Below, in pieces: positions 6,796 to 42,897 of a DNA stretch of 64,000 nucleotides. Source of the stretch: Dudresnaya verticillata (Eukaryota). The DNA lies in assembly GCA_977862235.1 (NCBI GenBank), contig OZ374562.1:2728001-2792000 (forward strand), read 5' to 3'. The notes under the pieces are model-generated. The model was not told the DNA's origin, did no database searches, and was given only the letters and a program-made list of their open reading frames with translations. Position 1 is the first letter of the stretch. Every line of letters begins with the position of its first letter. The position numbers and the translations under genes are program-made.

Positions 6796-6796
6796 T

Positions 6797-7098: not shown

Positions 7099-7741
7099 TG
7101 TAGTAGTATGGCCCGTCAAGGCAGAAACCCGCCAACCGGCAAGGACAGCTGTCCTGACGGTGCACAACACACTAGCTTGGGTAGCTCGGGAAAAGGTTGG
7201 TAGAGACTTTGAAAGGCACAGAGCCTAAGGGAAAAGGGGGAAAAGGGGCGGCGCCACCCAGCTCGCACAGAGCAACCGTCGTGTGGAGGCAAGGCTCGTA
7301 AAGCACCTGAAAGGGAGGTTACGGTGAGTCCGTGAATTCCAGAAAAAGGGTAAAGACCCGACACCCACCGTAGGTTCTATTCAGGAGGCCCCTGCTACTC
7401 AGGGGCCTATTAAGTATACAGAGCCGAAAATGCTCTTACCTCCTATCAGCTATTCTAAGCTATTCTAACTGTCATTATTAATCTAATTGTACTGTTTTCA
7501 GTTATAATTACGGATTAGTGGTAGTACCGCGTCGGGACGCTTGAGCGGCCACAATAAATTACCCAATGGCAATTTGCCATCAATTTTGGTGCCAGCAGGG
7601 ACGCCAGCGAGGCGCATCGCCCTTACAGCGCACGGTGCTTGTGCGCGCCTTACAGCTTGATGCGCGTGGGCGTTTTACACCTTAATGCACACAAATGACT
7701 TACAGTGCGCCAGCACTTCTGCTGCGGCTCATTCTTCCACA
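7099..7741 (-). repeat. 3' LTR of B
   Basis: TGTAGTAGT...TTCCACA; about 97-98% identical by eye to 42264-42897. Confidence 0.92.
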
Positions 7742-8283: not shown

Positions 8284-10605
8284 ATGAACAACAGCCATAT
8301 GGCTTATGGAGCCGCCGGTTCTAGCAACGGCGTGCTAGGAATCGAGGTCGATGAGATGGGCGTGCCCCTCACTGTCAAGGAGAGCCGCGACTGGAGAGTG
8401 CGCACCGACCTCGCGCATCTCAAAGCGCGTGCTGGCGCTGATCGCACCGACATCCGCCGTCGCGGAGCGCGCCAAGCCCAACGTCGTACTTGGAATACTC
8501 ACGCCCGGGCCCGTCTATCCCCGCTGACGGGTCTTACCCGTCGCCTGCCCGCCCTCGCGGGTCCGTGGCAATGGGACTTAGCGCACCCGCGCTTTCGCCA
8601 TGAAGTGCGCTACACCGCCACATTGTGCGACAAGCTCAACTTCGAGCTGGAGCAGATGCAGAGCGTGCACGACGCTGGGCAGTACGATCTCGGGATGGTT
8701 GCGCACGAGCGCCCACTGATTCGCAGTGGTAGGGACAATTACCCTTACACCATGGCGCGCGTGGTCCGCTGGGACGAGACATCCAACTTCAAATTCGCGA
8801 TGGATAATCCCCAAACGGCCATGCCGTCAGACTTGGTGCGGTTCGAGCACCGTAATCTACATCGCACTGGGTGCTACGTCCCGGCACATTGCCAAGATGT
8901 TACCTCTATCCGTCCCGAGTTGTACAGGGTGAAGTACCCTCAAGTTACAGGAGACCATGCGGAGCTCGAGGTATCTTACTCCATGCCCGTGGGCACTCCA
9001 ACGATCATAGCCTATCTTGGCTTGGAGATGATGGACACCAATACAGACGATAGCGTCTTGTGGCCCATTTTCCGCCACGAGTGGATAGTCTTGGTGACTC
9101 AAGTATTCGTATACGAAGCCCGTCGGGGCTTGTTGTATTTCATCAATGCCCCACTTCGTGCGTCCATCCGCTCCATAGGCTCCGCCGCCTTTACCGCGAC
9201 TTCGGCTGATGCCGACGATTTGGACCAACCCCTGGTCTTTGTGGAACGGATCCGTTGGAGTGGAGTCTCAAAGCGCAACAGGCACTTGCCTGAGAATACC
9301 GGCCACATTACACCGGTATTCGATCGCGGCGACGGGGTCGAGTTTGACGCCGTCAAGTGGAACCCAGTCCTTCCCGACTACTTAATGGCGCCTCTACCCT
9401 CCGAGGGTGAATCGATCCAATTGGATGAAGGCGAACGTCGCACCGGGTACACCAAAGGTTGGGTGAGCGTGCGTTAGCGCGATGAAGGGCCTAAGCACCC
9501 TGATGAGGTGCCCCCCTTCGACGACACTGTCGATGGGGAGCCGCAAGGTCCGTACACTCCAGTGCTGACACACCACTACCGGGCTGATGCCGAGATCCGT
9601 GACCTATTTGGCCGTCGTGGGTTGGCCATCCGCTTGGCTGCCCACTGGGGCATCTTTTCCCTCAACCTTCGTAGTCTTGCTGACTGGGTTGAGGATGTAT
9701 TAGCCGAATATGAGGCTCACTGGATTGGAACCCCGGGCAACATTGCGCGCCTTCTGGCTCATATGGATAAGATGCCCCCGCTTGGGGGGACCGGGGCTAA
9801 GGCGGAGCCGAGGGTCCAAGTTAAGGACGAGACTGGTATCCTGTCTACGAGAGAGCCTGGCTCTAAGGTGCGTCGCGGAGTCGGATATGGTAAGCCGGGT
9901 TCTTCAGCCCAAGGCTCATCTGGAGCCATTCTGGCGCCTGACGCTCGTGAAGCCAATGCGGCTGACGCGTCTAAGATTCCGCGTGAAGAGCCGTCGGCTG
10001 GGGCCTCTACTGAGGGTATAACTGCCGGGCCGGTGGCTGCGGCAGCTATATCGTCCAAGACCGGCGGTCCGGCTCAGCCATCGGCTTCTCGAGTTGGCGT
10101 CCCTCTACGCTCAGTGCTTCCAGGCAACGTGCCTACGCCTAGCGAGGCGCGACTCGGGCCTTTACAGCCGAATCTGTCTGGCACCGGCGAGGCAGTGGAG
10201 GTGACGTCCGGGCCAGGCCCTATAGTGACGCCGTCGCCTATGCCGGCTCAGGCTGAGTTGCCTTCCGCCGGAACCAAGGAGGTTACCACGGAGCCGCTGC
10301 ATGAGGCGTCGAAGCCTACTGACGACGTGCTCATCAAGACGGAGCTGATCCTCAAAGAGGAGGAGGAGTTGGAGGTCAACGAGGGCGGAGGTGCTACACC
10401 TGAAGCAACGCCGATGGACGTTGAGCTTCCAGCCAGTGAGGCTCGTGGTGCCGCAATGGAGGGTATGCGCCGAGGCCGCGGTCCGCGTCGTGGTCAAGGT
10501 CGGCGAATTGTTCGCGAAGTTCGTCGCATCGTGACGGCACGAGCTCCCGCGGCTCCGAATCCGCCGCTTGACGGCGACGAAGTCATTGACCTGCTCTCAG
10601 ATTAA
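8284..10605 (+). pseudogene. Antisense accessory ORF of B (~773 codons, single in-frame TAG at 9475-9477); unknown N-terminal domain, Ala/Pro-rich linker, SUMO/SIM-like tail
   Basis: Track ORFs 8284-9477 and 9508-10605 share a frame; strongly homologous to C 19880-22224; the TAG aligns with a Trp of C. Confidence 0.88.
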
Positions 10606-11621
10606 CTGAACCAGGTTCTTAATGGCTTGAGGCATCGAGCCTAATGGGTTAGAAGCCTATCCCAGCGGCTTAACCGCTTCACAATAAACCTCGTCTTGTA
10701 TGTTTAACCCAACGCCTCTTGTAGACTTCGAGCCTTCACGTCCGATGCCAGTTTCCTCCCTAGTGGGACAGTGGTGCCTTCGCCTGTTCAAGCATCGAGG
10801 GGCAACCTACTATTGGTTGACCAATACGCCTCCACAGCCTCTGTCGCGGCTTGAGAGCGTGACAGCAATGTCAGCAGTTGCTCTACAGTACAAAGCCACG
10901 CACTGTAGCGTATTTTGGCGCGAAAGCCATTAGGGCTTTCAATTGGCCATGCCGTCCCGCCGCCTTGCTGTAGCCCCACCGTGGGCTCTGGTCTCTCGTT
11001 GCAAGCATAATTTGGGTGCCAGTGCCAGGGCTTTACCCATCGCCACTACCACAGGGTAGAGGTCAGCGGCATCGGCTTCAAGCCCGCACGGCCTCCTGAG
11101 TTCTCAGCGTCAATACGCTTCGCGCTTCTCCTCCCATATCAAATGGGGTACGCTTTCCCGCGGTTGTCCCAACCGGGGTGAGAGTCATGGTATCAAGACT
11201 CATGAGTCTAGTTTTGGCGTCTTTTTGGCTTTGCGCCCTCGCGGGGTTTGACGCTAGCGCCCTTTTGGTGGGAGGTAGTTAGCAACCCTCCGGGCTCAAT
11301 ACCTCGTCCAGTTTGCAGCGTCGGCATCGCTTTTTGGCAGCCCAGCTGCCCTTAAGCGCCATCGTGCTGGTAGTTGTTGTCATTATAAATTACAAGTTAG
11401 TCATCGGGGCTGGGAACCACCCACATAGAGGGGGGAAGCTGCCTCCCTAGCTTGGGCCTTTCAGGAGTGTTTCCTTGAGGTAGCCAGGTTTTGGCAACTT
11501 TACCCTTCAAGGTATTAGCCTTACACAGCGTTATTTGCTCCTCGGATAAATGGTCGACTCCTAAGTCCAGAGCGTGCGCTCGCCTTAGCAACACCTTCTT
11601 TTAGAGTTCACCTCTTGATTA

Positions 11622-12021: not shown

Positions 12022-15000
12022 CTAATTGTCAGGGAGAGGTATCCCTTTTTGGCGGTGATACCTTACAACCAAATTGTGAGGGAGATGCCCATTTGGCTCC
12101 CAAGTGTCCTTTGAAGCCGGGCTCTGGAACCACCGCACACGATAAAGGTGTGTGTCGGGGTCATAGGAAACGATCCTTTCGTACACGTGTTCGCGTGGTG
12201 GTGCCTTCTTGAAGCGCGAGAATTTGCGGCTTGACGTCCCTTCAGCCACTGTCGGCGGAGGTGATGACGCATCCACACCCTCATCTCTAGGAGCATTCTC
12301 CTGTCGTTGGGGGACAACAGGCGCGGTATGGGCCCCGCTAGGTTGCGCATCCCCACCTGTGTCAGCCAGTGTCTCACCTTCAGCACCAGGTGCTTCAGGA
12401 TGGGCCGGTTCATTACCGCCTGATGCGGTGTTCATCGAGGGCCCAGTGCCGTTTGTGTTGGGCCCGTCGGTTGGCCCAGTTGGACTACTTGAGAGTGCTG
12501 CACCTGTCTCCGGTGGCATTTCCACTACCGTGGGAGTCATGTCTAGTGCCAGCGGCGCTTCGTGTGGCGATGGATCCAAAGTGACTCGGTCCAAAGAGAT
12601 TGTTTCTCTGTCGCCCTTGATGTCGAGAACCACCAGATGGGTTCCTCTCTCGAGGACCTTATATGGCCCAAGGGCTTTCGGGAACAGTTGCCCTTCCCTC
12701 GCCACGCCTGAAGCGTCCTTCACTTTAGTTTCCCGTTCGAGGAATACCCACGACCCGGGACGTGCCCTTTTGTTAGCCGGTCGAATGCGGCTATTAAAGT
12801 TGGTTTCATAGCGCTTTTGCTCTAGTTGCATCCTCGGCAGAGCCGTATCCATGAGCTTTTCCAGCCGAGCGGTTAGGCGCTTCTTGACGTTCGTAGCGGG
12901 TATCCCGTCAATGTCTACAGTTTCCGCTTGTTCCAGTAGTAGGGAAGTCGGCGGATTTGACAAAACCAAGTCAAAAGGGGCTAACCCTGTAGCGCGATGT
13001 ACTGTCGTATTGTAAGCGTACGTGAGCGCTGAGGTGAACTCGTCCCAGTCCCTCTGATCTTCCGCTATGAAGTGGCGAAGGCCCGCTAGGATGGTGCGGT
13101 TGAACCTCTCGGTTTGCCCATTAGTTTGGGGATGGTATGTCGACGTGAACATATTCCGAATCCGTAGGATATCGCACACGGCGAGGAAGAACTTAGAGGA
13201 AAATTGAGACCCATTGTCTGAAAGGACGTAACGGGGCGGTGCATAGATAAAGACCCAATGGTCACAAAACGCCTTCGCCACTGTATAGGCGGTTACCATT
13301 TTCATCGGTATTGCTCGTGTCAGCTCTGAGAAGCGGTCCGTCATAACCAACAGGAACTCGTTTCCTTTCCCGGAGCGGGGTAACGGGCCCAGTATATCGA
13401 TTCCTACGAACTCTAACGGCATGGTTGCCGGGAAGAGTTTCATCTGCGAAGCATGTTTCCGCAACTTCACCCGCTCTTGCGCGCACTTGACACAATTACG
13501 CACTGTGGCGTACAAATCCAATGCCATCTCTGGCCAATATACCTGTCTTCGTAGGTTATGATACATCCGGGTTCCACCTGGGTGTCCCGCCATCTCGGGG
13601 TAGTGGGCTAGGTGTAACGCCCTTTCCTTAAGAGAATGAGGTATGAGAACCTGTATCGCCTTGTCGATATACGACTTCCGGACTAGGAGTCCTCGTTCGT
13701 CCTCGAGATAGCAACCAGGCTTCCCGGCCTCGAGGTTCCTTCGGACCCAGATACAGAATTCATCTGTCTTCTGCTCACGGAGCAACTCTTCTGTGGTGAT
13801 GAGGGATAGTCCCTTTTGTCCAGATTCCTTCTCGGCCACTTGGGCGATGACCACTTCGTCATCCGAATCGGACTCATCGACGGGTTCGATTTCCCATACT
13901 TCCAACGGTCGCGTGTTGGGCTCCGGTCGCGACCTTTCGCAGGGTTCGTCCCTCGGATCAGTCTCGAGGACTAGACACGGGATTTCCAAGTCCGGTTCCC
14001 ATGGCGTGAAGCCATACGTAGGCAGCCGAGATACGGCATCAGCAATCTGATTCTTTTTTGCCTTTTCGGTACTGGACCGTGAAGTCGTATTCCAGAAGGC
14101 GTAATCTCCAACGGGCCAACCGTCCAGAAGCATCTGTCATGCTCATCATCCATTTCAGCGCTTGATGGTCTGTATACAGGTCAAAGTGGGACCTTTCTAA
14201 ATATGGTCTGAGCAATTGTGCCGCCCAGACCACTGCGAGGCACTCCTTTTCACCTACAGAATAATTCTTCTCTGCCTTCGTCAGTCCTCGGCTCCAGAAG
14301 CCTATTGGGTGTCGAGTCCCGTCTTCTTCGGCTTGCATCAGCGCGCAACCAATTTGGTAGTCGCACGCGTAGGTATCCACCGATAGGGCCTTACCCTCTT
14401 GTGGCAACCTAAGAATAGGAGGCGCTATTAGCGCTGTCTTCAGCAAGTCGAACGCCTCGCGCTGACGTTCATTGAACTGTGGCAGTTCAAAGCCCACTTC
14501 CTTCTGAAGGAGGGCATTGAGCGGAGCTGCCACGCGAGCGAAGTTAGGCACGAATCGCCTGTAGACGTTGCATAGACCGATGAAAGACCGCAACTGGGTC
14601 TGGGTGTTCGGCTCCTTGAATCCTTCGATGGCTTGCGTATTCTTAGTCGCCACTTCTAATAAACCCGGACGGATGACGTGCCCTAAGTAGTCGACACTCT
14701 TTGTGAAGAAGTTACACTTCTTCAGTTTCAAGGAGACCCCTGCTTCTTGTAATACAGCGAGAATCTCTCTTACATGCGTGACATGCTCGTCGACAGTCGC
14801 GGAGAATACGATAATATCGTCGAGGTATACGAGGCACGACTTCCATCGAAATCCTAATAAGAGGATGTCAACCGTTCGCTGAAAGGTCGCCGGAGCGTTG
14901 CATAGCCCAAAGGGCATCCTGCAAAATTGGAAACAGCCCGCGTGGCATGTAAAAGCAGTCTTATGCTTATCCGCCGGGGAAACCGGAATCTGCCAGTAGC

Positions 15001-16546
15001 CTGAGTTGCAGTCCAAGGTCGTGAAATATTGGGCTTCGCCCAAATTGTCCAGACACTCGTCCATGCGTGGCAGAGGATATGTATCCTTCACTGTTATCGC
15101 GTTAAGCTTGCGATAGTCAACGCAAAAGCGGAGTGACCCGTCGGGCTTCTTAACCAAGACGACGGGGCTCGCAAACTCAGAGCGTGCAGGCTCTATAACG
15201 CCTTCTTTGAGCATTTTGTCGACCTCATCCTGTTTTGCTTGACGGGCTTAGGGCCCGACCGATACGGTTGCGTAAACACAGGTTTCGAACCTTCTTGAAG
15301 CTCAATACGGTGTTCGGTCACCTTAATGGTTCCGATTTGTCCGTCCCATATACCGGCGAACGGTTTAAGCATTTTGCGCACGCGACGCCGATCCGAAGTG
15401 GACAGGTGTTCCAGCGCGAGGTCATCGACCGTAATAGCGGTTGTCGCTGATGTCGCGATTTTGATTCCAGGCTTAGAGTCTATATCCGTCTTCAGAGCAG
15501 CAGCAAGCCCCGCCCCCCCTACATCGGAAAATGTTTCGGACGAGGGAAGCGTGTCACTGTCAGGAACATTATCCTCGATGGAGACAGTGTAGACCGGCGT
15601 CTGTGTGGGTGCCGGTACAGCCTTTCCAAGGCTTTGATTCTTGGAAAGCCGTTGAGGACGCGAAGAAAAGTTCGCGACCTTGACGTGAAAGAGCCGGTTC
15701 TCTTGAATGTTGACGATTCCATTCGTCAACACGACTTGTCGGCGCTCGTATAAGCGGGGTAGGGATTCCAGGAAATGTGTTCCTTTGGCGGAACAGGTAA
15801 CAGGAACCCATGACTCACTGCCGGGCAGTAAGGTAGTAGTTTGTGCGACGCGAAGGAGTCGCGAGGTAGGTAACGGGGGAACGTCCATTGGTTCGTTAGA
15901 CCTGCCCTCACGGGGTATACCGCATCGGCGGCGTGGAATTGGGTGAATGGACCCATCGCGAAGAACCATGTTCTGTTGGCGGACGCGTAACCCTTCCACG
16001 TGGGTATCGATAAACGTGCAACCCAATATGGCATCTACTGCCAATGCCCTTACGACAACAAAAGGTTGCCGAACCGTGTAGGACCCGAGCCTGATTATTG
16101 GGGAGACTGTTCCCAGTGTAGTTAGACGGTGACTTGACGCAGAGGTCAAGTTCACAATTGACTGCGTTGTAGAAATCTGTTTCTTGTCTTTCGGTGATAG
16201 AACATCCGCGCGTATGAGATTAGGGCCTGCCCCTGTATGCAGTACGGAGAGCACACGAGTAAGATCGTCAACAGAAGTCCCGATGGACGCAGCTACTTTA
16301 TAATTGTAGCGCGACAAGGAGCAAACGGGATCCTTACAATACTCGTGATACTTCCGTCCGGGGGGTAAGCCCACGGCACGCGCTAAGATCTTCTTGGGAA
16401 GAGAAGTGACAGATTCACTAACAACCGGTCGATTCGTTGATGAGAAGCTTTCGAAGCTGTAGCTCGAGGAGCTGGATTCAACGCACCGATCGGGGGTTCC
16501 GATGTCACCTGGGATATGTGGTGTACCGAAACCGGTTCCCCCCTCG
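12022..16546 (-). pseudogene. pol: Pol of B (PR-RT-RH-IN-chromodomain), frameshifted
   Basis: VLHTGA (catalytic Asp replaced by His), YLDD, EKECLAV, GHPG..CVKC, HPQTNGQTER, GPY, YRVRW..DTWEP. Confidence 0.93.
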
Positions 16547-18667
16547 CTAGTTTTTTGCCTTCATTGCGGGCGACCGCGGTAGCGGTGGAGGTGGTGGAAA
16601 GGGACGAGGCCCTTGGCGTGGTGACCTGGGCGTTTGCCTCGGAGCGTCGATGGGGTGGTTCAGTCGAGGTTGAAATTGAACCTGTCGATTTCCCCCTTGA
16701 CTTGCACCCAAATTTTGACGGGGATCCATCCGTTGCCCCATGGGCGGCCCGGCGGACACTCGCTCATTAGCGAACTCCGGCAGTCGGCCAACTGTCGCCA
16801 GCCACGCTTTTTGCTCGTGTGATAGTTGATGAAACTGTCTTCTTTTTAAAGTCTCAAAAGACTGCTCATCGGTTCGAGCCAAATGCGGACAGTTGGGCTT
16901 TTTATAGCCAATGCCGTAGCATTCGAAGCAGATATCATTGGGTTGCTATTCAACCGTCACCCACCCAGGGCGTTGAGACCTGGTTGGCTGTGCCCAGGCT
17001 GGGAGCCTATTATTGTAGTTCTGCAGTACCACGTCAACTTCACCGTGATACGGTTGGTCGTAGCAATACTGTGTCGACCACGAATCCGATTGGGTCGCGG
17101 TTGATGGTGGCGCTTCGTTAGCGATGGCAGCCACGACTGCGTCTTCGCTTTCCGCATCAGAGCTGCTGCTCTTTGAAGTATCCGAATCGGAGGCGGATGC
17201 ATCCTTCGCCTGGCGAATTAGGAGCGCCCGCCCTGACTTGTGGGTACGAACCTTCTTTAAGGTCCTCCATGGTAGCGTCCTAGTCGCTTTTGGCGTTCGT
17301 CCGCCACCCACTAGCGCCCGATGGGAATCTCCCTGCGCAGTCGTGAGCTCGACGTAATCCGCCAGTCTGGCCGTCCTTGGGTCCAATGACGACGTACTTA
17401 AAAGCGGCTTCACCACTGGTAACAACCCCCGAATAAACCTGGTTATCAAGTCTTGTTCGGTGTACACCCCAGCGACTCGACGCGCTTTGTTCTTCAACCT
17501 TCTCGAAAAGGTTACTTCGTCCTCATCTGGCTCCTGCGCCATGGTGTCCATCTCAGAGGCAATCCTCTCAATATAGACGTCCTTGGCATATGTCCGAAGA
17601 AGGTAATTCACGGCTTCGGGCCATTCGGTGAAACCACCATTGTCGTCACCCGCAGCGTCAAAATTCGCTTCAAACATATCCTTCGCATCCTTCTCGAGGA
17701 ACTCGGGGATGACGAGGATAGCGGCACCTTCGCTGATATGGGCTTGATCGAGCTGCCTCTTAAGCGTGGCTAAGAAGCCAATAATTGACACCGGGTCACT
17801 CCCGTCAAAACGGCGACTCCGCATAACGTACTTCACACGTTTGATTTTCTTCGTGGTCGCCTCGGTCACCTCGGGCCCGCGGTAATCATCCAGGTTCAAT
17901 AACCTATATCTTCTATAGGACAGTACCTGTATGAAGGCGGGATTCCTAGGAGTCAACTCCTTCACACCTGACCGTCGGGGACCCCTCCAGGAACACCATG
18001 ACGGTCTAGAATGCGAACGGGAACCCGGTCCTTCTTCATCCGAGGGACTCGGATTAGGGTGAGACCCTGACCGAGGATTCTCCTCGTGACTATGGCTTGA
18101 ATATCTGTCACGATGAGAATCAACTTGGTCGCGGTGTGCAGAAGACCCAATTGGTCTGGTGCACTTGCAACCCTGTTGGCAACGGCCTCCATCTCCTTCA
18201 CCTTGGGACCCACTGTCCGACCCCCTATGGGGTAGCCTCCTACGCCTATCGCGCGTACCGCGAGGCACTGGTGAGCGCCGTCTCATGACTTCAGGGATAT
18301 TATCCCTCTCGCGGATTACGCGCCGCATCTGCAATTCCAGAAAAGCGACACGACGCTTCTACTCATCGAGTTCTTTCCTTAGGACCTCGATGGCTCTGTC
18401 CTGTTCAACGCACCGTGCGTTGTCTACGTTAAATTGAACGTCCGCAATAGCCATTGCGGCTTCTGTCCTGGAAAGGTCGGCAGCCTTCGTGGTTTCATCT
18501 AATTCAAGATGAACCGATTCCAACTGGTCCCCCATTGAGTCCACTTGGGCTTGTAGGGTCTCGACCCTTTCCTCTTCTAAACCCCTCAAGGGGCGTGGTT
18601 GGCAACGAGAATTGACCATTTCTTGGCACTTAGCCAGTAGCTGGTCGTCTCGACGCGCGGTGGCGTC
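16547..18667 (-). pseudogene. gag: Gag of B, main part (5' part displaced by C and D)
   Basis: LSYRRYRL, FDGSDP, YLLRTYA, decayed zinc knuckle near 16890-16935, ends KN*. Confidence 0.88.
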
Positions 18668-19260
18668 TGTAGCACAACGGGTCCAGCCCAGGAAGAGAAA
18701 AAAGAACAAAGGACACCTGTCCGGAACCGTCGTGCTCATAGGTAGCTCGGGTGTGGTAGAGGCTTGATAGAATGGCGCTAGGCCAGGAAAAAGGAAAAGG
18801 AAAAGGGGGACGCGACCCGGTATTCCGCAGGGAACCTGCCGTACGGTGACGAGCCTGTAGTTGGCGTCCAAAACGGGAAGCGCCCGGAATCCAGAAAATG
18901 GTCAAGACCGATAAACGCCCCGTGGGGTTCAATCAGGGGTGCCCTACTATTCAGGGGACCAATAAATAGGGCTTTTGCCCGTGCTAATACTAACTACTAC
19001 AGTGTACTGTACACGAATTACATTGATCAATGGGAGGCGGATCTACGCCCCTGTGGCGGCGTATAATCGGGAAATATCCCAACGCCGCACCAATGATCAG
19101 GCGCCAATTGCGCGTCTGAGGCGCAGATGACTTCGCGCCAGGCGCCAATCACGTGTCGCATCATGGCGCAGTCCAGCAATGCCAGTGCCTTACAGGGCAT
19201 TGGCCCGTTACGACTTACAGCGTCGAGCGCCCACTTGGCGCAAATCGCCGTTGTGCCACA
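18668..19260 (-). repeat. 3' LTR of C
   Basis: TGTAGCACA...TGCCACA; repeated at 30710-31307. Confidence 0.95.
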
Positions 19261-19879
19261 CGGCCCCCCTCGTAAGACCGAGAGTCCCCGCGAGGTCTGA
19301 GCCGTTTCTGTGCCACAGTTTCCAATTTTCATTGGCGTTCCGCCAGATTTGTCGGGCCAAAGCCGGCGCAGCGTAACGTTGCGACTGGGACGCCGTCGAC
19401 GAGAAGTCCCGCACTCTGAGCCAGCGCTCCAAAATCGTGAGCGTATATCAGGGTGTGTACCCGCGTCGGCGCAAGGTGTTGGTGCACCGGCATCCGCCAC
19501 AACTCTTGCGCGCCTGCTGCATCATCGTCCTCAAGCGCTGCAACAGCTCCCTGCCGACCTTCGCACCGGGTGCGCGTCGTCTTTCTTCCGAAGGTTCTCG
19601 GCGTGGGCGCCGTAGCCCTAGCTTTCGCATCGCCGCGCCTGGCGCTGCTGTTCGGCGTCGGTGTCGTCGTCGGTGGCGAGTGGTAACCGCATTTGTGCCA
19701 CGTCGCGCCGTTGCGCCCTCGGTGTTGCCAGAACCAACCCCGTCGAGGGGTGCGTGAGCGCAGCGAATCTCTGCCTGCTGGCCGCTGCGTGACCGATCGT
19801 CCAAGTGAAGGAAGAAGAGTTTTGGGCAGGGCCCTTTCAAGTGGAAGCACTCAAGCCGGAGCCCGTGCTCGTCATCACG

Positions 19880-22224
19880 ATGCCAGTGAATCCCAGCTTC
19901 CACTATGGGCAAGCCGGGTCGTCCGATAACGTGGCGCCGGTTGCTGTGGACGCGGGAGGGGTCCCTGTTGACATTGCGGCTAGCCGCGATTGGCGTGTAC
20001 GCACGGACCTAAACCATGTGCGACCCCGCGCGGGGGCGAACCGCGACGAAGTGCGCCACCTAGGCGGGAAGAGGGCGGAAGCCAAGGCTTGGAATACCCT
20101 ACTGAGGGCCCGTGTGAGCCACTTATCGTTTACGACTCTGCGCATTTCGACGCCGGGGCCATTCCCCTTTGATTTGACACGCGCCCGATATCGGTGGGAG
20201 GTCCCTTGGATTGAGAAGATGGCCCGTTTCATGGGCGAAGAGAAGTATGTGCTTGACGAGGTATTTGCTCCGAGGGCTATGACCTGAGGGCAGTTGGCCA
20301 TCCGCGCCCTTTCATCCGGGCAGGCAGGGACAATTTCCCGTACAACACAACCAGGATCACGCTTCCCAACAACCGCACCACCTATAAATACCATTTGGAC
20401 ACGCCGCAGACGGCTCTTCCCCACGAAGCTGCTCGCTTTGAGCGTCGCCAGAGGCACCGCACCGGGTGCCTGGTCCCGTTCCACTGCCAGGAGGCAACCG
20501 CTATTAAGCCGGAGATGTTCATAAGCAAGTACCCGCAGATCCCTCCGGATTACGGGTATTACGAAGTCTCGTACTCGATGCCCGTGGGGGTTCCGACCGT
20601 GGTGGCCTATCTCGGCTTGGAGCTGATGCAGTCCTCAAGTAACAGTTTGCTGTGGCTCAGCTACAGGCACGAACGGATCGTCCTCATCACCCAGGTCTTC
20701 ATGTACGAGGCGCGGAAGGGCCGCCTATTCTTCATCAACCAGAAGATACGCGATGATATTCGCGAGATAGGCTCGTCGGAGTTTACGGCTAATGCCGATG
20801 ACGCAGTTGACCTGGACTCGCTCCTACTCTTTGTCGAGCGTATCGTCTGGCGACGAGTGTCGAAGAAAAGCCGGTTCTTGCCCGCAGATACGGGCACTAT
20901 CACACCGGTGTTTGACCGCGGGGATTGGGTCGACTTCGACCCCGAAGCCTGGGCTCCCGACATTCCCGAAGATCTGATCAAATCCGTTCCAGTGGATGCT
21001 CACTCAATCGAGGCGGACGAAGGCATGCGTCTGCGGTCCGGTTTCACCGCGGGGTGGGTTTGTAACAACTGGCACAAGCCGAAGACTCCCGCTGAGGTGC
21101 CCGCGTATGACGCGCTTACCGATGGTCAGCCGTTAGGCCCGTACGCCCCGTCGGTGGTCCATGGGCGAAGCAAGGCCGATGCCGTAATTCGCAAAGTCTT
21201 TCGTCAGCGTGGTTTGACCGTGCGCCTCCATACCCATTGGAACATCCAGAACTTAACGGTCAATTCCCTGGCGGATTGGGTCGAGGCGACCATTGTCGAC
21301 TACGAAGCCTCTTGGCTAACAGTACCAGGCCCCATCCATCGGAGGTCGGAACATTTCCGGGGCTTGCCCCGTTTGGGCGAACAAGCCAAGGAGGAGCGAG
21401 AAGCGCCTGTCGCGCGAGAGGAGTTGGCCAATCCTGCGACCGGTGTGGCCCCGGCGGCACCTACAGCCATCGTTGCCGGCCCGGTGGGAGCCGCGTCGGC
21501 GGCTCCTGTCGGAGAGACCCGACTTAGGGGTCGTCATGGTATCGGCTCAGCGGGGCGTCGTGCCCGTCAGGAGGAGGAGATAGCGCAAGGCTTGGCAATT
21601 CAGGGCGTCACCATTCCTGGCAATAGGGGGAATGCCCCACTTGCGGCGAGGCGCGATGGTCGCGAGGATGACGCGGTAATGGCGTCTCTTCCGCCGGCTT
21701 CGGAAGCTGCCCTTGGGGCAACCCCGTCTCAACAGCCGACAACAGCGGCGGCAGCAACGGCACCGGCCAGCGAAAGGGATGAAGAGCGGATTGAGCCGGC
21801 GACTCCCGCGGCGCCGCCTACTCCAGCGTCCACTTCATCCCCTGGGTCAGTGGTGATGTCTTCCCCACCGACGGGTGAGGCGCCGCCGTCACTACCTATT
21901 GAAGGCAACGCGGCGTCCGGGCCTGGCCCGATCGAGGCTGACTCAGTGCAACTCGTCTCGAATACAGCAGCAGTGGACAGCTCCAGGGTGTTGCCGGATG
22001 AGGAGTCGCAAGTCATGCAGGAAGAAGGCGGGGGCCTGGTTAAGACCGAGCTCGTCATTAAGGAAGAGCTCGAAGAGGACCCAACTCCTATGGAAACGGA
22101 CCCCGTTCAGCCGCGAGTGCGTCGCATCATCCGCGAAGTGCGGCGTATCGTTCACCCGGTCGGTGCCGTGCGTCCAGCTAACGTGGAGAACGACGAAGTG
22201 GTTGACCTGACGGAGGATGAGTAG
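19880..22224 (+). pseudogene. Antisense accessory ORF of C (~780 codons, one frameshift near 20270)
   Basis: Starts MPVNPSFHYG; after the shift reads GYDLRAVGHPRPFIRAGRDNFPY, matching B QYDLGMVAHERPLIRSGRDNYPY; ends EVVDLTEDE*. Confidence 0.88.
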
Positions 22225-22979
22225 ACTCCCATCCTCCTGTTGCTCATTAGGGCGTTGAGCCCAAGAAGTTAGTGCGGGTTTGCCGCGTAGAAGTTAATGT
22301 CTGTGCATGAGTTAAGAATAAAAGTCACTGTTGACGGGGGAATTCGCCAAGCTAATGGCTGCCGCCAACATCGGTTGGGTTAGTGTTGAAGTTAAAGTGC
22401 GCGTCGTGCGCGAGTTAGCCTCGTTGGTTTGTACAGTAGGCCAGGGGCCTCAGCCTTGTTCCAGCTTCTTGGCATAGGAAGTGAGCCTCCACCCCGTGAC
22501 ACCTGCACCGTTTGGCAGAGAGAGAGAAGAGGGCAATTATCCTCGGATGCCAAGCGTAGCGGCGAACGGGTCGAGAACGCCCCTAGCGTCGCGTCGAGGC
22601 CAGCCTCAAAGGCAGGCAGCTTGCTGCCTTCCCCCTTCGCAGTGGGGATGGAGACAGTTGTTTCCAAAACGATGCTTGGCGTACGTGCGCGTACAATATT
22701 CGGTATCATACCGTCGCCAGACAGTGTCCTTTCCCACTTGAGATATTACTCCGCTCGCTGTACGGCCACAGTACGCCCAACGGCACCAGTTGCCAGCACT
22801 GTGCTATTTTGGCTTACACATCGGCCCGTGGCATCGGACGGTGCCGCCTCGTGTGTCGCCTCGCACTGTATCAGGCCGTGAAGCAAAAAGGGGGCGTTGA
22901 GGCCGAGATGGTAATCCGTCTACCGCCAGGCGCTTGCCAACTCCTGTCCCAACGGGGGAAGCTATGTCGCATACGCGAG

Positions 22980-25900
22980 TTAAAGGGGAATGCCCCGTTT
23001 GCGATGGTACCTCGCCACGAGGTTGTGAGGAAGGTTCTCCCGGGGTTCCCACGTGTCGTCAGAGGCCGAGCGCTGGTGCCAGCGGAGCTTATACCGTGCT
23101 GACTCAGGGTCATAGGACATGATCCGATCATAGACGTGCTCCCGCGGAGTAGGGCGCTGATAGCGCGAGAAGCGGCGCTCCGTTGGCGAAGTCTCAGGCC
23201 CTTGCGCAGGGCTTTCGCTCTCGACGGCGGGAGGAGTGGCGTTAGTGGGCTTCGCCGGTCCCGGCTGTAGTGCGGTCAAGGGCACGGTTCCCGCTTCGAT
23301 GGGGCCTGGCCCAGTAGCCGGATTCGCCTCCATGATAGTAGGGGCTTCACCCCGAGCATCCAGCGGCTCGTCAGGGGGAGGCGCTAGCGTTACCCTGTCT
23401 AGGGAGACTGATTCCCGTTCGCCCTTGACTTCAAGGACCACAACGTGCGTGCCACGATCCACCACCTTATATGGGCCTAGCGCCTTAGGAAACAGTTTGC
23501 CTTCGCGATCCACGCCATCCACGTCTTTCACCCGAGTCTCGCGCTCTAGGAACACCCCGCTGCCAACTCGAATATTCCGGTTCGCAGAGCGGACTCGTCG
23601 GTTGAAGTCCGATTGATAGCGCTTCGGCGCGAGCCTCAAACGGGGGAGAGCGGTGCCCATCAATCGCTCCAATCGCTCTGATAAGCGTTTCTTGACGTTA
23701 TTCGCGGGGAAATTAGCAACTTCCACCGTCTCGGATCGCTCCAGGAGCAGGGCGTTCGGGGGATTTGAGATCACCAGATCGAAAGGGGATAGCCCCGTGG
23801 CTTTGTGCACCGTAGTATTGTACGCAAACGTGAGTGCGTTAGAAACTCATCCCAGTCACGCTGATTCTCAGCGATGAAGTGCCTTAGCCCGGCTAGAATG
23901 GTGCGATTAAAGCGTTCGGTCTGGCCGTTACTTTGCGGGTGATATGTAGACGTAAATAGATTACGTACTCGCAGAATGCTGCAAATGTTCACGAAGAACT
24001 TCGAGGCAAACTGGGACCCATTGTCCGATAGCACATATCGCGGAGGTCCATATACATAGGCCCAGTGGTCGCAGAAGGCCTTAGCGACGGTATAGGCCGT
24101 AATCATCTTGAGCGGAACAGTCCGGGTTAGCTTTGAGAAGCGATCCGTGATCACGAGTAAATACTCATTTCCCTTGCTTGACTTGGTCAATGGACCTAAA
24201 ATGTCGATTCCGACAAACTCCAAAGGAGCCGTGGTGGGGAAGAGCTTGAGGAACGAAGTATGCTTCCTCAGCTTGACTCGTTCTTTCGCGCATTGGACGC
24301 AATTCCGAACGGTTGAGTAGACGGCCAAGGCCATATCTGGCCAATACACTTGCCGGGTTAGGTTGTGAAACATGCGGGTTCCTCCTGGGGAAGAGCTTGA
24401 GGAACGAAGTATGCTTCCTCAGCTTGACTCGTTCTTTCGCGCATTGGACGCAATTCCGAACGGTTGAGTAGACGGCCAAGGCCATATCTGGCCAATACAC
24501 TTGCCGGGTTAGGTTGTGAAACATGCGGGTTCCTCCTGGGTGGCCAGCTAGGGCCGGATAATGGGCCAAATGTAGCACCTTTCTCGAAGGGTCGCGGGTA
24601 TGAGAACCTGTATGGCTCCATCCACGTAAGCTTTGCGGGCGAGGAGCCCTCGTTCGTCTTCCAAGTAACACCCGGGGCTTCCCATATCAAGGCGCTTCTG
24701 CACGTCTTGGCAGAACGAGTCTCGTTTTTGCTCTCGGAGCAGCTCCTCTACAGTTACTTGTGAGACACTTGCCTCGTCGGCTCGCTTCTCCGCCGCGGTG
24801 GCGATGAGTATCTCGTCCATGTGACTGTAATCCTCGAGGGGTTCGATGTCCCACGCCTCTAGGGGCTCTATTTTGGTGGGTCTATCCGTGAACAACATTG
24901 TCTCCGCTGAAGTCATCCGGTCTGGACCGTCTTCCTCTTCGGCTATGAAGCAAGGTATCTCGAGATCAGGCTCCTTGTGGGTATGACCCCATGTCGGGAG
25001 GCGAGACACCGCGTCGGCAATCTGGTTCTTACGCCCCGTCCGGTATTGGACCGTAAAGTCATATTCCAAAAGGCGAAGCCTCCATCTCGTCAAGCGTCCT
25101 GAAGCGTCAGACATACTCATGATCCAGCGTAACGCTTGATGATCCGTGAAAAGATCGAAGTGAGACCGTTCCAAATAGGGTCGCAATATCTGTAATGCCC
25201 ATACGACGGCGAGAAACTCTTTCTCTCCGACTGAGTAGTTCTTCTCAGCTTTCGTTAGCGAACGGCTCCAGAAACCAATAGGGTGTCGATCACCGTTCCC
25301 ATCGGTCTGCATCAGGGCACATACCACTTGATAGTCGCACGCGTCGGTGTCGACTGATAATTGGCGTCCCACTTGCGGCAGTTGGAGTATGGGCGGAGCC
25401 ACGAGTGCTTTCTTCAGAAGCGAGAAGGAATCTCTTTGTTCCTCATTGAACGTCGGGAGGTTGAAATCCACTGTCTTCTGCAGTAATGCGTTAAGCGGCG
25501 CAGCAACTCTCGCAAAGTTGGGCACGAACCGTCTATAAATGTTGCACAAGCCAAGGAAAGAGCGTAGCTGCGTTTGCGTCTTTGGTTCCCTAAACCCGTC
25601 GATGGCCTGTGTGTTCTTCGAGGCGACCTCCAGGAGGCCAGGGCGGACCACGTGTCCCAGATAATCGACGCTCTTCGCGAAGAAGTTACATTTCTTCAAC
25701 TTCAGCGATACTCCTGCGTTCTGGAGCACCTCCAGGATTTCCTTTACGTGAGCAAGGTGCTCTTTGACGCTTTTGGAGAAGATGATGATATCATCCAGAT
25801 ATACCAAGCACGAATTCCATCTGAATCCAGACAGGAGAATGTCGACCGTTCGCTGGAACGTGGCTGGTGCATTACATAGCCCAAAGGGCATGCGGCAAAA

Positions 25901-27497
25901 TTGGAAGCATCCAGCGTGACAAGCGAACGCCGTCTTCGGCTGGTCTTCCTTGGCGACCGGTATCTGCCAGTAGCCATAATTACAATCAAGCGTTGTGAAG
26001 AATTGGGCATCTCCCAGAGAGTCCAGACACTCGTCCATACGAGGCAAAGGATAAGAATCCTTGATCGTTACTGCATTAAGCTTTCGATAGTCGACGCAAA
26101 GGCGTAAGGAGCCATCAGGCTTATTGACCAGCACGACTGGGCTCGCGAATTCCGACCGCGCGGGTTGTATGACCCCTGCTTCCAACATCTTGGCTACTTC
26201 CGCTTGTTCAGCCTGTCGAGCTTTGGGACCTGCCCTATAGGGTTGTGAGAAGACGGGCTTCGTCCCTGGCTTGAGCTCGATATGGTGCTCAGTGACTTTG
26301 ATAGTCCCGAGTTTACCACTCCACATTTCCGAGAATGGCCGGAGCATCTTGCGTACTCGACGCTGATCCTTTGGTTCCAGATGTGAAAGGTTTAGGTCTT
26401 CGACCGTCATGTTGGCGACCGAGGCCTTAATGCCGGGTTTTGGATCCGTATCCGGAGAGAAAGCAGCAGCAAGCCCTGCCCCCCCACATCGAGCGACGGC
26501 TCGTCGGGTTCGTGAGGAGCAGATGGGGCGTCCTCGAAGGACAGAGCGTAAACTGGGGTTGTGGAAGGAGCCGGAATGGCGTGTCCAATCTTCTGGCGTT
26601 TGGCCAGGCGCTTCGGGCCTTGAGAGAAATTGGCCACCTTGACCCGGAACGGCCGGTTAGGTTGCACGTCGATGATGCCATTTGTGGCAACTAGACCCTG
26701 TCGGTCGTAGAGCCGCTGGAAGGAATCCATGAAGTGTACACCTCGCGCCGGACACGTGACCGTGACCCATGCTTCTGACGCCGCTGGTATAACAACCGAA
26801 TGTGCCACGCGCAGGTGTCGCGGTTCGGGAGGACCTGTGGGGACCTCTTGTGATTCCTCGGGGCGCGAACCGCGGGGAAGTCCGCATCGTCGGCGTAATA
26901 TCGGGTGTATGGACCCATCACGCAAGACGGCGCGTTGACGCTTGATTCTCAAGTTATCGATATGGTGGTCGATGAAGGTACAACCCAGGATCACATCCAC
27001 GGCGAGTGCTTGGACGACGATGAAAGGTTGTCGGACCGTGTAGGTTCCGATTCGAACGTACAGGGAGATAGTCCCTAAAGTAGTTAGTTTGTGCCCTGAG
27101 GCTGAAGTTAGATTCACGATGGACCGCCCAGAAGCGATCTTCTCTTGATCCTCCGAGGAAAGAGCACCAGCTCGTATGAGGTTGGGGCATGCCCCTGTAT
27201 CCAGGACCGAAAGGACGCGAGAGAGTTCGTCAAGAGAGGTCCCAATGGACGCTGCCACTTTATAGTTATATCGCGACAGCGCGCATATGGGATCCTTACA
27301 ATACGCATCAAAAGTGCGTCCTCGAGGAAGCCCTAGAGGGCGAGGTAAGATCTTCCTTGGGAGAAGGTTTGCATCGGATTCTGGTTCCGGCCGATCCGGG
27401 AATGACGGGGACGGGTGGCCGTCCTCGCTCGATCGGTCGGGGGACCCCGGGTCGCGTAGCAAGAGCTGCGATTCGACGGGGTCCAAGGTCCCCCAGT
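22980..27497 (-). pseudogene. pol: Pol of C (PR-RT-RH-IN-chromodomain), frameshifted
   Basis: VLDTGA, YLDD, DACD, HPQSNGQTER, GPY, YKLRW..DTWEP. Confidence 0.93.
24239..24540. repeat. 151-bp tandem duplication inside C integrase
   Basis: GAAGAGCTTGAGGAACG...CCTCCTGGG present twice with period 151; TGGG microhomology. Confidence 0.93.
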
Positions 27498-30121
27498 CTA
27501 GTTTTTCGGCACACGGCCGTGTCTTGCTGATGGGGATGCCGGTAAAGGCGGAGGAGGTGGGAACGGTCTGCCACTTGGGCGAGGAGAGCGGGGGTTACTC
27601 CGCGGCCTATCCACAGGATGGTTGAGCGCGTCGGCGAACTGCACCTGGGGACTTGCCGGTCGGGGTGCCCCCCTGTTCTCCGGGTGCGGGCTGGCCGTGC
27701 CCTCGTTGAAATTTCGACGTGAATTTTGAGGACCTGGATCCGAGGGACGCATCTCATTCGCGAATGATGGCGAACGGCCCACGATGGACAGCCATTCCCG
27801 TTGCTCCCTGGAGAGTTGGGCATAGTGGTTACGTAGTATCTGTGAGAAGCCACGCTCGTCTGTTCGTGCCAGATATGGGCAATTGGGCTTTTTATGTCCG
27901 ATACCCAGACATTCGAAGCAGATGTCATTCGGCCTATCCTCCACCACTAACCAGCCGGGACGCTGTGTGCGAGATGGTTGGGCCCACGAGGGAAGCCTCG
28001 GATTCTGGTTGGATAGTACCGCACTGACGGAGTCATAATAGCTGTCCGTAGCGTCCGAGGGGCTGTGGACCAGACGCCCGAAGTTGTTACGGACGAATCC
28101 GGCGCTTGGCTGTCGATGGCCGCCAAAACGGCGTCCTCCGAATCGGAGCTAGTCCTTGTAGAGCCACCACTGTCACTTGACGCGACCTCAGTGTTGGGAC
28201 GTCCCTGTCTGACCAGTAGTGCCCGGCCGGCCTTCTTGGATTTAACGGAGGACTTCCCTCGCAACATTGAAGTACCAGAGACACGCTCTCGACGACCAGC
28301 GCCCATTAGGGCCCGGTGTGAGTCATCTTGGGTAGTAGCCAGTTCCACATAGTCGGCAAGCTTTGCCGTCCGTGGGTCCAAACCCGAATTGCTCAGTAAC
28401 GGCTTTGTGGCCGGCAAGAGTCCGCGGATGAACCGGGTAATAAGATCCTGTTCTGTATACACACCCGCGACCTTTCGAGCCTTATTCTGGAGGCGTCGTG
28501 AGAAGGTCACTTCGTCCTCATCCTCGGCTTGTGCCATACTCGATGTACACATCCTTCGCATATGTGCGTAGAAGGTAATTGACGGCCTCGGGCCACTCGG
28601 AGAATCCTCCATTATCATCCCCGGCCACGTCGAAGTTGGCTTCGAACATGTCTCGCGCATCCTTATCCAGGAACTCGGGAAGCACAAGGATTGCTGCTCC
28701 TTCGCTTATCCTGGCTTGGTCCAGTTGGCGCTTCAAGGCGGCTAAGTTCAGCAGACGATAGCGTCGACAAGAGAGAACCTGAATGAAAGCCGGGTTCTGC
28801 GGCGCCAGCTCCTTAACGTCCGAGCGTCTAGGTCCTCGCCAAGAGGGGCGCGATGAACTCCTCGGTGGGGAACTATCCTTTTCGGAGAACTGCGGCTGAC
28901 GCCGCTGCGCCGGCCGGCGTGGTTCATCCCGGTTTCGACGGGATTCAGTCCCTTGGCCAGTACGACAGGTTCTGCAACGTGAATGCGCAGCGCGCGGATT
29001 GTCAACCTCCGAATGGTCGTGTACCGATTCCACATCGGAGTCTCGCCTAGGCGAATGACGTCGTCGGTCTCGAGTTCCTTTCGGCACCGGGCTCCGGCGT
29101 CGCTCCACTTCAGGAGATAAGTCCTTCTCAAGAAGGCAAAACTGGAGACGAGTCTCGATTATGTTGATCCGATGCCGTTCGTCGGCTAGCTCCTTCCTTA
29201 AGAGCGCAATTGCTCGGTCCTGTTCTACGCACGTGGCGTCATTCCCATCGAGACGAAGGGCTCGAACTGCTTCGGACGCTTCTTCCCGTGAGAGGTCCAC
29301 TACTCGAGTGAGGGACTCAACATCTCCGTGGATCGTTTCCACCCGCTCCACGAGCGATTCTATCCTCGCATCGAGTGATTCCATTTCATCCGCCACTCTC
29401 TGTCCTGTATCGGAGTGGCGGATGCGGCCGGTTATTTCCTCTTGACACAAGGTCAGTATCCGCTCATCTCGGCGACCGGCTGACTCATCAATGTAGCGTT
29501 TTACACGCGTGAGCGTTTCATCAGCCTGTGCTGCGTAAGCGGCCTGATTTTGGTCGCTACGAGGTGACCAACACCATCAGCGACCATTAGGTGGATCTCC
29601 GATTCCGTAAAGCATCGGACATCCTCCGAATTGGTATCCGTTCGGGTCGGCTGCCCATATCCAGGCGCCGAGTCAACATCTGTCGGTGCCGCGTAGTCGG
29701 TCGATCGTCCACTGGGGAGTCGCCCTGATTCCGGCATCACTTCTGGACCCTGGTCCTCATTCCCATCCACTTGTGTGGATGTTTGCGGTTCTGGCCGGGT
29801 CATTTTTCCTTCTAACGAGGCCGAATCCCTTCCAGGGTTCGGCATTAAACCGGGGGTAGTCCCGAGAACAAGGTCGGGCCTAGAACTTCCAACCAATGGC
29901 GGTCGTTCGCGGTTTGATCTTGGTTCGGGATCGTCTTCATCGGGGGCGTCGCCGTCGGTATGGCGTCGCCCCAATCGCCCGTCCGAAGGGCTGCGCCTTA
30001 GCGCGGCAGTCCCAGAACGGGTGGTAACGCCCGAGATACGGACGGAGGAAAGACTTACGGCACGACTGCCACCACGGCCGATGAGGCTCGGCCTAGTTGT
30101 ATCGCCGTTCGATGTCGGCAT
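27498..30121 (-). pseudogene. gag: Gag of C (frameshifted, with internal deletions)
   Basis: MPTSNG start, YLLRTYAKD, CFECLGIGHKKPNC zinc knuckle, ends KN*. Confidence 0.88.
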
Positions 30122-30690
30122 CCTTCCGATGGTATGGGACTAATAACCCGTCCCAAAAATAGGTAGTAATTCCGGAAGGACCGGTGGGTCGATGGGACTT
30201 TTCCCGATGCGCCAACCGGCGTTCCGTAAGTGTTGTCGCACGAGGCGATGCGTCGAAGGGGAATCCTTTCCAGCTTGAGCACGGTGCTCGTACGTAAGCC
30301 TTGGTAGACTTCAGGGCTACCAGCGATTTCTCCAAGAGGACTCTCCAACTTGTGCGCTGGCACGGCCTGTACAAAAGGACGGTGTTTTACCAGGATGCAC
30401 CGATAACCTGTCGAAGCAGTCTTGAGGGGGGCGTCAGTCACGCCCTCAACGGCAACTTCTAAATGGCCACTAGGGCCGGTTGTAATTCCAAGAATAAACG
30501 TGCTCGCCACTGATTTGACGCTACTGAGCGGCTTGAGATGGAGCGTAGAAACCGTCAACAATCCTAACTAGGGTTTCAACACCGGTTGGCCGGGAAACTC
30601 GTCCTTGACACGAAACAACGTCTTGAGTCTTGTACTCGTTGAGTTAACCAACCAGGGTTGAGGAAGAAAGCGGAAACCAACCCAGAACAC

Positions 30691-30708
30691 TTCTAGGTCG
30701 GGAGACCA
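30691..30708 (-). promoter_or_regulatory. PBS of C (TGGTCTCCCGACCTAGAA), probably tRNA-Tyr
   Basis: Adjacent to the 5' LTR; identical 18-mer in B and D. Confidence 0.85.
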
Positions 30709-30709
30709 G

Positions 30710-31307
30710 TGTAGCACAACGGGTCCAGCCCAGGAAGAGTAAAAAGAACAAAGGACACCTGTCCGGAATCGTCGTGCTCACAGGTAGCTCGGGTGTGGTA
30801 GAGGCTTGGTAGAATGGCGCTAGGCCAGGAAAAAGGAAAAGGAAAAGGGGACGCGACCCGGTAATCCGCAGGGAACCTGCCGTACGGTGACGAGCCTGTA
30901 GTTGGCGTCCAAAACGGGAACAGGAAGCGCCCGGAATCCAGAAAATGGTCAAGACCGATAAACGCCCCGTGGGGTTCAATCAGGGGTGCCCTGCTATTCA
31001 GGGGACCAATAAATAGGGCTTTTGCCCGTGCTAATACTAACTACTACAGTGTACTGTACACGAATTACATTGAGCAATGGGAGGCGGATCTACGCCCCTG
31101 TGGCTGCGTATAATCGGGAAATATCCCAACGCCGCACCAATGATCAGGCGCCAATTGCGCGTCTGAGGCGCAGATGACTTCGCGCCAGGCGCCAATCACG
31201 TGTCGCATCATGGCGCAGTCCAGCAATGCCAGCGCCTTACAGGGCATTGGCCCGTTACGACTTACAGCGTTGAGCGCCCACTTGGCGCAAATCGCCGTTG
31301 TGCCACA
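30710..31307 (-). repeat. 5' LTR of C
   Basis: Repeat of 18668-19260 with ~10 substitutions and 2 indels by eye. Confidence 0.95.
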
Positions 31308-42263: not shown

Positions 42264-42897
42264 TGTAGTAGTATGGCCCGTCAAGGCAGAAACCCGCCAA
42301 CCGGCAAGGACAGCTGTTCTGACGGTGCACAACACACTAGCTTGTGTAGCTCGGGAAAAGGTTGGTAGAGACTTTGAAAGGCACAGAGCCTAAGGGAAAA
42401 GGGGAAAAGGGGCGGCGCCACCCAGCTCGCACAGAGCAACCGTCGTGTGGAGCCAAGGCTCGTAAAGCACCTGAAAGGGAGGTTACGGTGGGTCCGTGAA
42501 TTCCAGAAAAAGGGTAAAGACCCGAAACCCACCGTAGGTTCTATTCAGGGGGCCCCTGCTACTCAGGGGCCTATTAAGTATACAGAGCCGAAAATGCTCT
42601 TACCTCCTATGAGCTATTCTAAGCTATTCTAACTGTCATTATTAATCTAATTGTCCTGTTGTCAGTTATAATTACGGATTAGTGGTAGTACCGCGTCGGG
42701 ACGCTTGAGCGGCCACAATAAATTACCCAATGGCAATTTGCCATCATTTTGGGTGCCAGCAGGGACGCCAGCGAGGCGCATCGCCCTTACAGCGCACGGT
42801 GCTTGTGCGCGCCTTACAGCTTGATGCGCGTGGGCGTCTTACACCTTAATGCGCACAAATGACTTACAGTGCGCCAGCACTTCTGCTGCGGCTCATT
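42264..42897 (-). repeat. 5' LTR of B, lacking its terminal ~8 bp
   Basis: Matches 7099-7733, then diverges (ATAACCG instead of CTTCCACA). Confidence 0.9.

Follow-up and report, generated by a model that had tools for sequence, protein, structure and literature searches.

Antisense accessory genes of nested Ty3/gypsy retrotransposons in Dudresnaya verticillata encode proteins with candidate SUMO-acceptor and SUMO-interacting motifs in their tails

Two LTR retrotransposons in a 64,000-nucleotide stretch of Dudresnaya verticillata DNA (contig OZ374562.1; hereafter the window) each carry an antisense accessory gene, whose protein ends in tandem SUMO-consensus lysines and a terminal SIM-like motif. 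Judging from their sequence, we consider it quite probable that these tail motifs engage SUMO. The fuller reading, to which we give about even chances, is that the tail serves as a SUMO-modified and SUMO-binding module of a nuclear accessory regulator that acts on its own element.

Overall organization of the retrotransposon nest

The window contains a nest of LTR retrotransposons, and four of the elements in it are designated A to D. Pfam searches with the ORFs of the window detected RVT_1, RT_RNaseH, rve and Retrotrans_gag in Ty3/gypsy order. Element B lies on the minus strand between a 3' LTR at 7099..7741, which has TG...CA ends and a polypurine tract on its inward side, and a 5' LTR at 42264..42897, which adjoins the primer-binding site and is about 8 nt short at its outer end; the two LTRs are 97.8% identical. 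The 3' part of its gag and the pieces of its pol, coding for RT, RNase H, integrase and a chromodomain, are found at 12022..18667 (minus strand). Elements C and D are both located inside gag of B. Element C (18668..31307, minus strand) has LTRs at 18668-19260 and 30710-31307 with 97.2% identity and a 5-bp target-site duplication (GCGTC/ACGTC), and gag-pol of element D spans 40500-33248; the 3' LTR of D was not found in the window. An 18-nt primer-binding site, TGGTCTCCCGACCTAGAA, is common to B, C and D (42237-42263, 30683-30709 and 40607-40625, respectively), and its primer may be tRNA-Tyr. By their Pfam order, LTR pairs, the target-site duplication of C and the common primer-binding site, these elements are Ty3/gypsy LTR retrotransposons. 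Most of the RT relatives in the list of the best 120 are without names; the nearest named eukaryotic ones came from Chondrus crispus (71%, with 76% of the query covered) and from Agarophyton chilense, which points to a red-algal host.

Chromodomains are encoded on the minus strand of all three elements, at 12022-12200 (B), 22980-23150 (C) and 33248-33450 (D). When the cage positions were compared by eye, they were occupied by H, W and S/R in B and C, versus Y, W and Y in D. The B and C chromodomains are without a full aromatic cage and therefore not of group I; they fit the description of group II in the available text of PMC3350952, which reports group II-like chromodomains from plant elements only.

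The other features of the window are as follows. Element A (179-7100) is an unrelated Ty3/gypsy element of lower GC with LTRs at 179-482 and 6797-7100 (94%), and the 3' LTR of B starts where the LTR of A ends. The Gag of A contains a PMQIG motif, loosely similar to the PM[DE] island in the tail described below. A Ty1/copia-like element at 52567-59882 is intact and has an ORF of 1439 aa (53594-57913, minus strand); its 1033-bp LTRs are identical to each other, and it is a very recent insertion. It is flanked by ORFs matching AIG1-type GTPases (51416-52513 and 59877-60887) and probably splits a single gene. A host ORF of 411 aa (48373-49608, plus strand) contains a DDD motif but matches no Pfam family, and may be glycosyltransferase-like.

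Antisense accessory gene of elements B and C

In both B and C, the accessory ORF is positioned between pol and the 3' LTR on the plus strand, with gag-pol on the minus strand. The ORF of B (8284..10605, plus strand) comprises 773 codons with one in-frame TAG at 9475-9477, and that of C (19880..22224, plus strand) contains one frameshift near 20255-20290. Both breaks are upstream of the tail, and neither copy in the window would yield a full protein. The B protein is composed of a folded core (residues ~20-397), a small helical unit (residues ~430-496; 9571..9771, plus strand) and a tail rich in Ala, Pro and Gly. The folded parts of B and C share 53% identity, with a pN of 0.32 and a pS of 0.74 at which synonymous sites are saturated, and third codon positions are conserved least; the antisense gene is under protein-level selection. 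Since both copies are broken, this conservation reflects past selection in active lineages rather than present expression. We rejected constraint from the opposite strand or another frame, since the other frames are stop-ridden or unconserved, and also rejected a 280-aa ORF from the ATG at 9763 as a real gene, since it is the part of the accessory ORF 3' of the premature stop.

AATAAA, a candidate poly(A) signal of an antisense transcript, is present on the plus strand 78 nt past the stop of B (10683..10688) and 93 nt past that of C (22317-22322). This hexamer is scarce on the plus strand of the internal sequence, with 3 occurrences in 10.9 kb of B and 2 in 11.4 kb of C, and its presence past both stops therefore suggests a separate antisense transcript. 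No membrane segment was found in the antisense protein (top 19-residue hydropathy 1.28), and with its antisense orientation and without such a segment the protein is not Env-like. The frame 5' of the C ATG is also open (19793-19879, plus strand) and contains the further consensus-like VKEE and LKPE, which have no match in B. In element D, an antisense frame of 233 codons (31323-32024, plus strand) is rich in Ala, Thr and Pro with repeated TPK motifs, and is probably the tail of an accessory ORF whose 5' part was lost along with the 3' LTR. Its match to the helical unit of the family was sub-threshold only (E 0.1).

Several LTR elements are already known to carry accessory ORFs in antisense orientation (Retand, Grande and Boty). 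In the available text of PMC7264820 and PMC11963269, additional ORFs that lie antisense in the interval from pol to the 3' LTR are termed aORF-3R and include Grande gene23, RIRE2, Retand TRP28, PvRetro13 ORF2 and Boty. The gene of B and C is antisense, is located between pol and the 3' LTR and is conserved among elements, and it belongs to aORF-3R by position. It resembles these genes in position, orientation, protein-level conservation and a probable nuclear regulatory role; GENE23 of maize Grande is a nuclear protein whose gene has an antisense promoter of its own (PMC7264820). However, the Retand antisense ORFs carry TRP28 according to the available part of PMC11963269, whereas the B/C gene has no match to TRP28/PF04195 or any other Pfam family. 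The B and C elements also bear chromodomains and an RT whose nearest named relatives are red algal, unlike the angiosperm Retand. The product is also distinct, a protein of ~770 aa in which a separate core fold is followed by a tail with SUMO motifs; the available text of PMC7264820 and PMC11963269 mentions nothing of this kind.

Protein family and core structure

The first ~400 residues of the ORF define a family of 162 matches at E<=1e-3 in a full HMMER scan. Word-based homolog searches with the C ORF and with an alignment of the B and C domains gave no matches, and the HMMER scan alone succeeded. Of these matches, 150 were listed, 146 of which fit the core profile and 75 of which extend at least 120 residues past the core. 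Cluster look-up of 20 of the 150 listed homologs gave no informative name. The AlphaFold model of the core reached a pLDDT of 82 and a pTM of 0.76 with a 116-row alignment, compared with a pLDDT of 29 with 3 rows. Fold searches with this core model found no match, although this result does not establish the fold as new, and sequence searches of Pfam, PHROGs, NCBIfam and PDB returned no credible match for the family. Pfam gave nothing for the antisense ORFs at E<=0.1, one unrelated weak match for 68 homologs at E<=0.01, and no credible match at E<=3 for a set of 68 homologs largely overlapping the first. Weak atlas matches of the C protein to SSO2105_N (0.76) were rejected as below the reliable range of the atlas, and the homolog P0134 gave none.

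The core contains a conserved basic helix, R-x-E-R-x-x-R. Family equivalents of the helical unit resembled HeH (E 0.19) and Ish1 (E 0.21) in 1 of 13 rows each, far below the cut-off, and no member of the HeH/LEM/SAP clan was present among 39 weak PDB sequence matches for this unit. Locus searches with the integrase in viral, metagenome and genome contigs yielded four short loci, none with the antisense ORF, and searches with the antisense domain in metagenomes and with the homologs P0134, P0277 and P0171 gave no usable genomic context. The antisense LTR-element setting was read in B and C, and homologs were compared as proteins.

C-terminal tail of the accessory protein

The first island of the B tail (10330..10368, plus strand) contains the tandem SUMO-consensus sites IKTE (K685) and LKEE (K691) with an acidic flank; LIKTELILKEE at 10330-10362 corresponds to LVKTELVIKEE at 22036-22068 in C. 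It is followed on the same strand by TPMDVE (10408..10425), RRIVREVRRIV (10501..10533) and the terminal DEVIDLLSD (10576-10602) with the stop codon at 10603-10605, the last two together forming the feature 10576..10605. In C, the corresponding islands VKTE, IKEE, TPMETD, RRIIREVRRIV (22120-22152) and DEVVDLTEDE (22192-22221) extend with the stop codon (22222-22224) over 22036..22224 (plus strand). An earlier note on this DNA had described three islands behind an unalignable Ala/Pro linker, namely the tandem sites, a basic motif and the terminal SIM. These were located exactly as stated and exceeded chance in all tests run, and TPMDVE/TPMETD is a fourth that the note had overlooked.

First, alignment of the last 92 aa of B with the last 64 aa of C scored 115, against 36 ± 6 (maximum 61.5) in 2000 shuffles. 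The linker alone scored 85 against 68 ± 10, a value reached by 113 of 2000 shuffles and hence not significant. Second, of the 24 codons that specify identical residues, 13 have changed synonymously. The 31 island codons have a pN of 0.13, compared with 0.12 for RT, and a pS of 0.75; as the islands were picked as conserved, their pN is biased low, whereas the synonymous saturation is unbiased. Third, a tandem [ILV]KxE pair arose in 0.08% of composition shuffles of the B tail and in 0 of 20,000 of the C tail, and a [VIL][VIL]DL core within the last 15 aa in 0.16% (B) and 0.05% (C). Finally, the two consensus lysines are the sole lysines in the last 277 residues of C. BLAST did not detect the islands.

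With two conserved psi-K-x-E sites in a low-complexity region, whose disorder was judged by composition alone, the B and C tails are putative SUMO substrates by the consensus in the available text of PMC8161396. DEVIDLLSD and DEVVDLTEDE, each with a V/I/L-rich core and acidic flanks, would be SIMs under the definition given there. Two details given for these motifs need adjustment. The count of two SUMO sites per protein holds for the conserved ones, but B has a third, unconserved VKDE at 9820-9831; and a (V/I)(V/I)DLT-type SIM describes C but not B, whose core is VIDLL.

The supposed basic motif proved to be a lysine-free, predicted amphipathic helix that is confined to B and C, with a helical hydrophobic moment of 2.8 at 100 degrees that 0.5-0.8% of shuffles exceed. 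As it is amphipathic and without Lys, we rejected it as a classical NLS and interpret it instead as a short helix for docking. An R/G-rich stretch precedes it in B only. GMRLRSG in C (21023-21043, plus strand), which we take to resemble a herpesvirus nucleosome-binding motif, is likely a chance occurrence, being kept neither in B nor in the family and having no PDB match.

Recurrence of SUMO motifs among the homologs

Among the 75 homolog tails, 14 contain a SIM-like motif, 7 contain [VI]KxE, 6 contain both and 60 contain neither. Three SIM patterns were used here, two of them written after the tails had been seen, and the number with neither is an overestimate if copies are degenerate or cut. 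Conservation across family copies, proposed in the earlier note as a check, is partial: both motifs recur in 6 of 75 distant homologs, but SUMO engagement is not family-defining because 60 have neither.

With patterns taken from the earlier note, the [VILMT][VI]DL[TSV] core was found in 5 of 75 tails against 0.3 in shuffles (maximum 3), and VKxE occurred 8 times against 2.2 (maximum 7), whereas [IVL]KxE counted per tail showed no clear enrichment (8/75 vs 4.4, maximum 9). Five of the look-alike controls with rearranged K and E stayed within the shuffle range. The presence of [VI]KxE in 7 tails was reached by 7 of 300 shuffles. A similar excess was seen in the N-terminal parts ([VI]KxE, 8 vs 3.1, maximum 9; DL-type core, 5 vs 2.1, maximum 6). 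A SIM-like motif accompanies [VI]KxE in 6 of 7 tails and occurs in 8 of the 68 others (Fisher p 9e-5, with rows that are not independent).

A core tree was built with 71 rows, leaving out 6 of the 75 whose coverage of the core was too short. On it, the 8 proteins that combine both motifs require 5 changes, 3 of them forced by well-supported branches. Grouping these 8 as one clade was rejected (p-AU 3e-5, 32 rows chosen by hand), and the SIM-plus-site combination is present in at least four lineages. The SIM is positioned 11-12 residues ahead of VKxE in P0210, P0242 and P0277, VKxE is followed by xIDVD/VDID in P0141 and P0153, and the order in B and C is site, site and terminal SIM. Because motif type and order vary by lineage, repeated gain fits better than a single origin, although the tree cannot separate gain from loss. 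The complete island set of B and C was found in no homolog. The SUMO module is an add-on that was gained or lost several times, and it is probably functional but optional, not the core activity of the family.

NLS-like basic clusters were found in 18 of 75 tails against 7.6 in shuffles (maximum 16), and M[DE][VTI][DE], a pattern chosen after seeing B and C, in 12 of 77 family tails against 0.9. The homologs P0175, P0143 and P0223 end in short Arg/Leu motifs, which presumably resemble acidic-patch binders.

Proposed function and alternative explanations

We suggest the following mechanism. The antisense gene would be transcribed on its own, as the AATAAA past both stops suggests, and the terminal SIM would bind SUMO in line with general SUMO biology. 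SIM-bound SUMO may then promote modification of the lysine pair located 80 residues upstream, SIM-assisted self-SUMOylation being a known process. Through the SIM, the protein may dock or be retained where SUMO is abundant, on chromatin or in nuclear bodies; the core and the HeH-like unit may contact chromatin or nucleic acid, and the net outcome would be control of element transcription, either activating or restraining, with the SUMO module tuning location or turnover. The nuclear regulator reading is supported by the gene anatomy, the selection, the family, the motif recurrence, the NLS-like clusters and the Grande precedent, whereas a classical NLS is absent from the B and C tails and most homolog tails are without the motifs. 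The earlier note had proposed a nuclear, TE-encoded factor that engages SUMO, either against silencing or to help target heterochromatin. The TE-encoded antisense origin of the protein and its selected, jointly recurring motifs agree with the SUMO part of this proposal, but SUMO is not a defining property of the family.

The tail resembles RNF4/STUbL and PIAS proteins, as covered in the available text of PMC8161396, in the V/I/L-rich core, the acidic flank, the low-complexity region and, as in RNF4, a nearby Arg-rich motif. However, it has one SIM rather than a cluster. Since there is no RING or SP-RING Pfam match and the first 503 residues of B contain only 3 Cys, the protein is not a ligase of the PIAS or STUbL type; Cys makes up 0.6% of the folded part, with none conserved.

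SUMO acts in TE silencing in animals, and a possible but rather unlikely alternative, the main idea of the earlier note, is a dedicated anti-silencing factor. Such a protein would bind the element that encodes it, and its SIM and SUMO sites would serve to displace repressors that depend on SUMO or to titrate them away. The recurrence of the SUMO module in the family favours this, and VANC of the Arabidopsis VANDAL elements is a family-specific accessory anti-silencer that works by other means (available text of PMC6719617). The likeness to VANC, drawn in the earlier note, is that both are accessory proteins encoded by a TE, with a possible action on the family they come from. However, VANDAL is a DNA transposon, and according to the same text VANC causes demethylation and depends on a short motif present in high copy. 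Five copies of CATCTATCC at 11622-11711, in the non-coding 3' region of B, might be such a motif; they sit in a 44-46 bp tandem repeat (11622-11728) between pol and the antisense ORF. C has no such repeated motif, with nothing above 3 copies, and the likeness to VANC involves no homology. The lack of Pfam homology and of the SUMO module in most family members also speaks against this alternative. Moreover, red-algal TE silencing has so far been tied to H3K27me3, in C. merolae, by the available text of bioRxiv 2025.02.11.637652, which describes macroalgal chromatin as unexplored and in the main text of which the word SUMO is absent. The Plavaka elements treated in the same preprint are likewise red-algal TEs with accessory genes of proposed chromatin roles, but they are DNA transposons with methylase, SET, ParB or oxygenase domains, none of which was detected in the B/C gene. 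In its widest form, a large red-algal TE accessory family of unmatched fold would have repeatedly evolved SIM-plus-SUMO-site tails against SUMO-dependent silencing, VANC-like and in the manner of viral antagonists; we likewise hold this to be improbable.

Somewhat less probable still is a Rev/CERV-like RNA adaptor, in which the Arg-rich helix and the core would bind genomic RNA for export or packaging and the SUMO motifs would only set nuclear location. The helix itself, the R/G-rich stretch of B and the basic core helix point in this direction. The available texts of PMC7264820 and PMC11963269 draw the analogy to retroviral accessory proteins, and CERV of Cer1 provides a precedent (available text of PMC10309623). 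However, no RNA-binding family or fold was matched, and among 77 tails the Arg-rich helix is restricted to B and C, apart from look-alikes within the helical unit of two homologs.

WDR5, a WD40 protein, reads acidic V/I-D-V/L motifs. The islands might dock a partner other than SUMO, for example one of this kind, or be chance look-alikes kept for other reasons, which we consider about as doubtful as an RNA adaptor. Short motifs are degenerate, and 4 of 75 tails have variants of the xIDVD type; against this, the family uses two distinct types of SIM interchangeably, both found together with VKxE, and both lysines remaining in the C tail are in consensus sites.

The least probable alternative is an integration-targeting cofactor, which as part of the pre-integration complex would guide it towards heterochromatin rich in SUMO and so offset the lost methyl-lysine cage. 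In favour, the first and third cage aromatics are missing from B and C, D has all three and the elements are nested in one another, but nesting is common without such factors, there is no sign of integrase contact, and only three elements are compared, of which D has lost its 3' end so that its accessory gene cannot be judged. These alternatives are not all exclusive of the regulator reading.

Significance

In our literature searches, we found no account of this family, nor of any transposon accessory protein that bears a SIM; Repbase-type libraries, subscription papers and preprint supplements were outside their scope and may annotate the ORF. No paper on red-algal SUMO machinery was found, and SUMO appears in PMC5741268 in the reference list only. 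What antisense accessory ORFs do for LTR retrotransposons is treated as a question still to be answered in the available texts of PMC7264820 and PMC11963269. To this question, the B/C gene brings a family of at least 162 clusters and a confident model without a matched fold. Because the motifs predict two lysines and one SIM, the question of function becomes testable with a peptide. If anti-silencing were true, the gene would rank among the few in which a retrotransposon encodes a suppressor that is a protein. If the repeated motifs do engage SUMO, they would make SUMO a contact point between transposons and chromatin in red seaweeds, in which TE silencing has been little studied.
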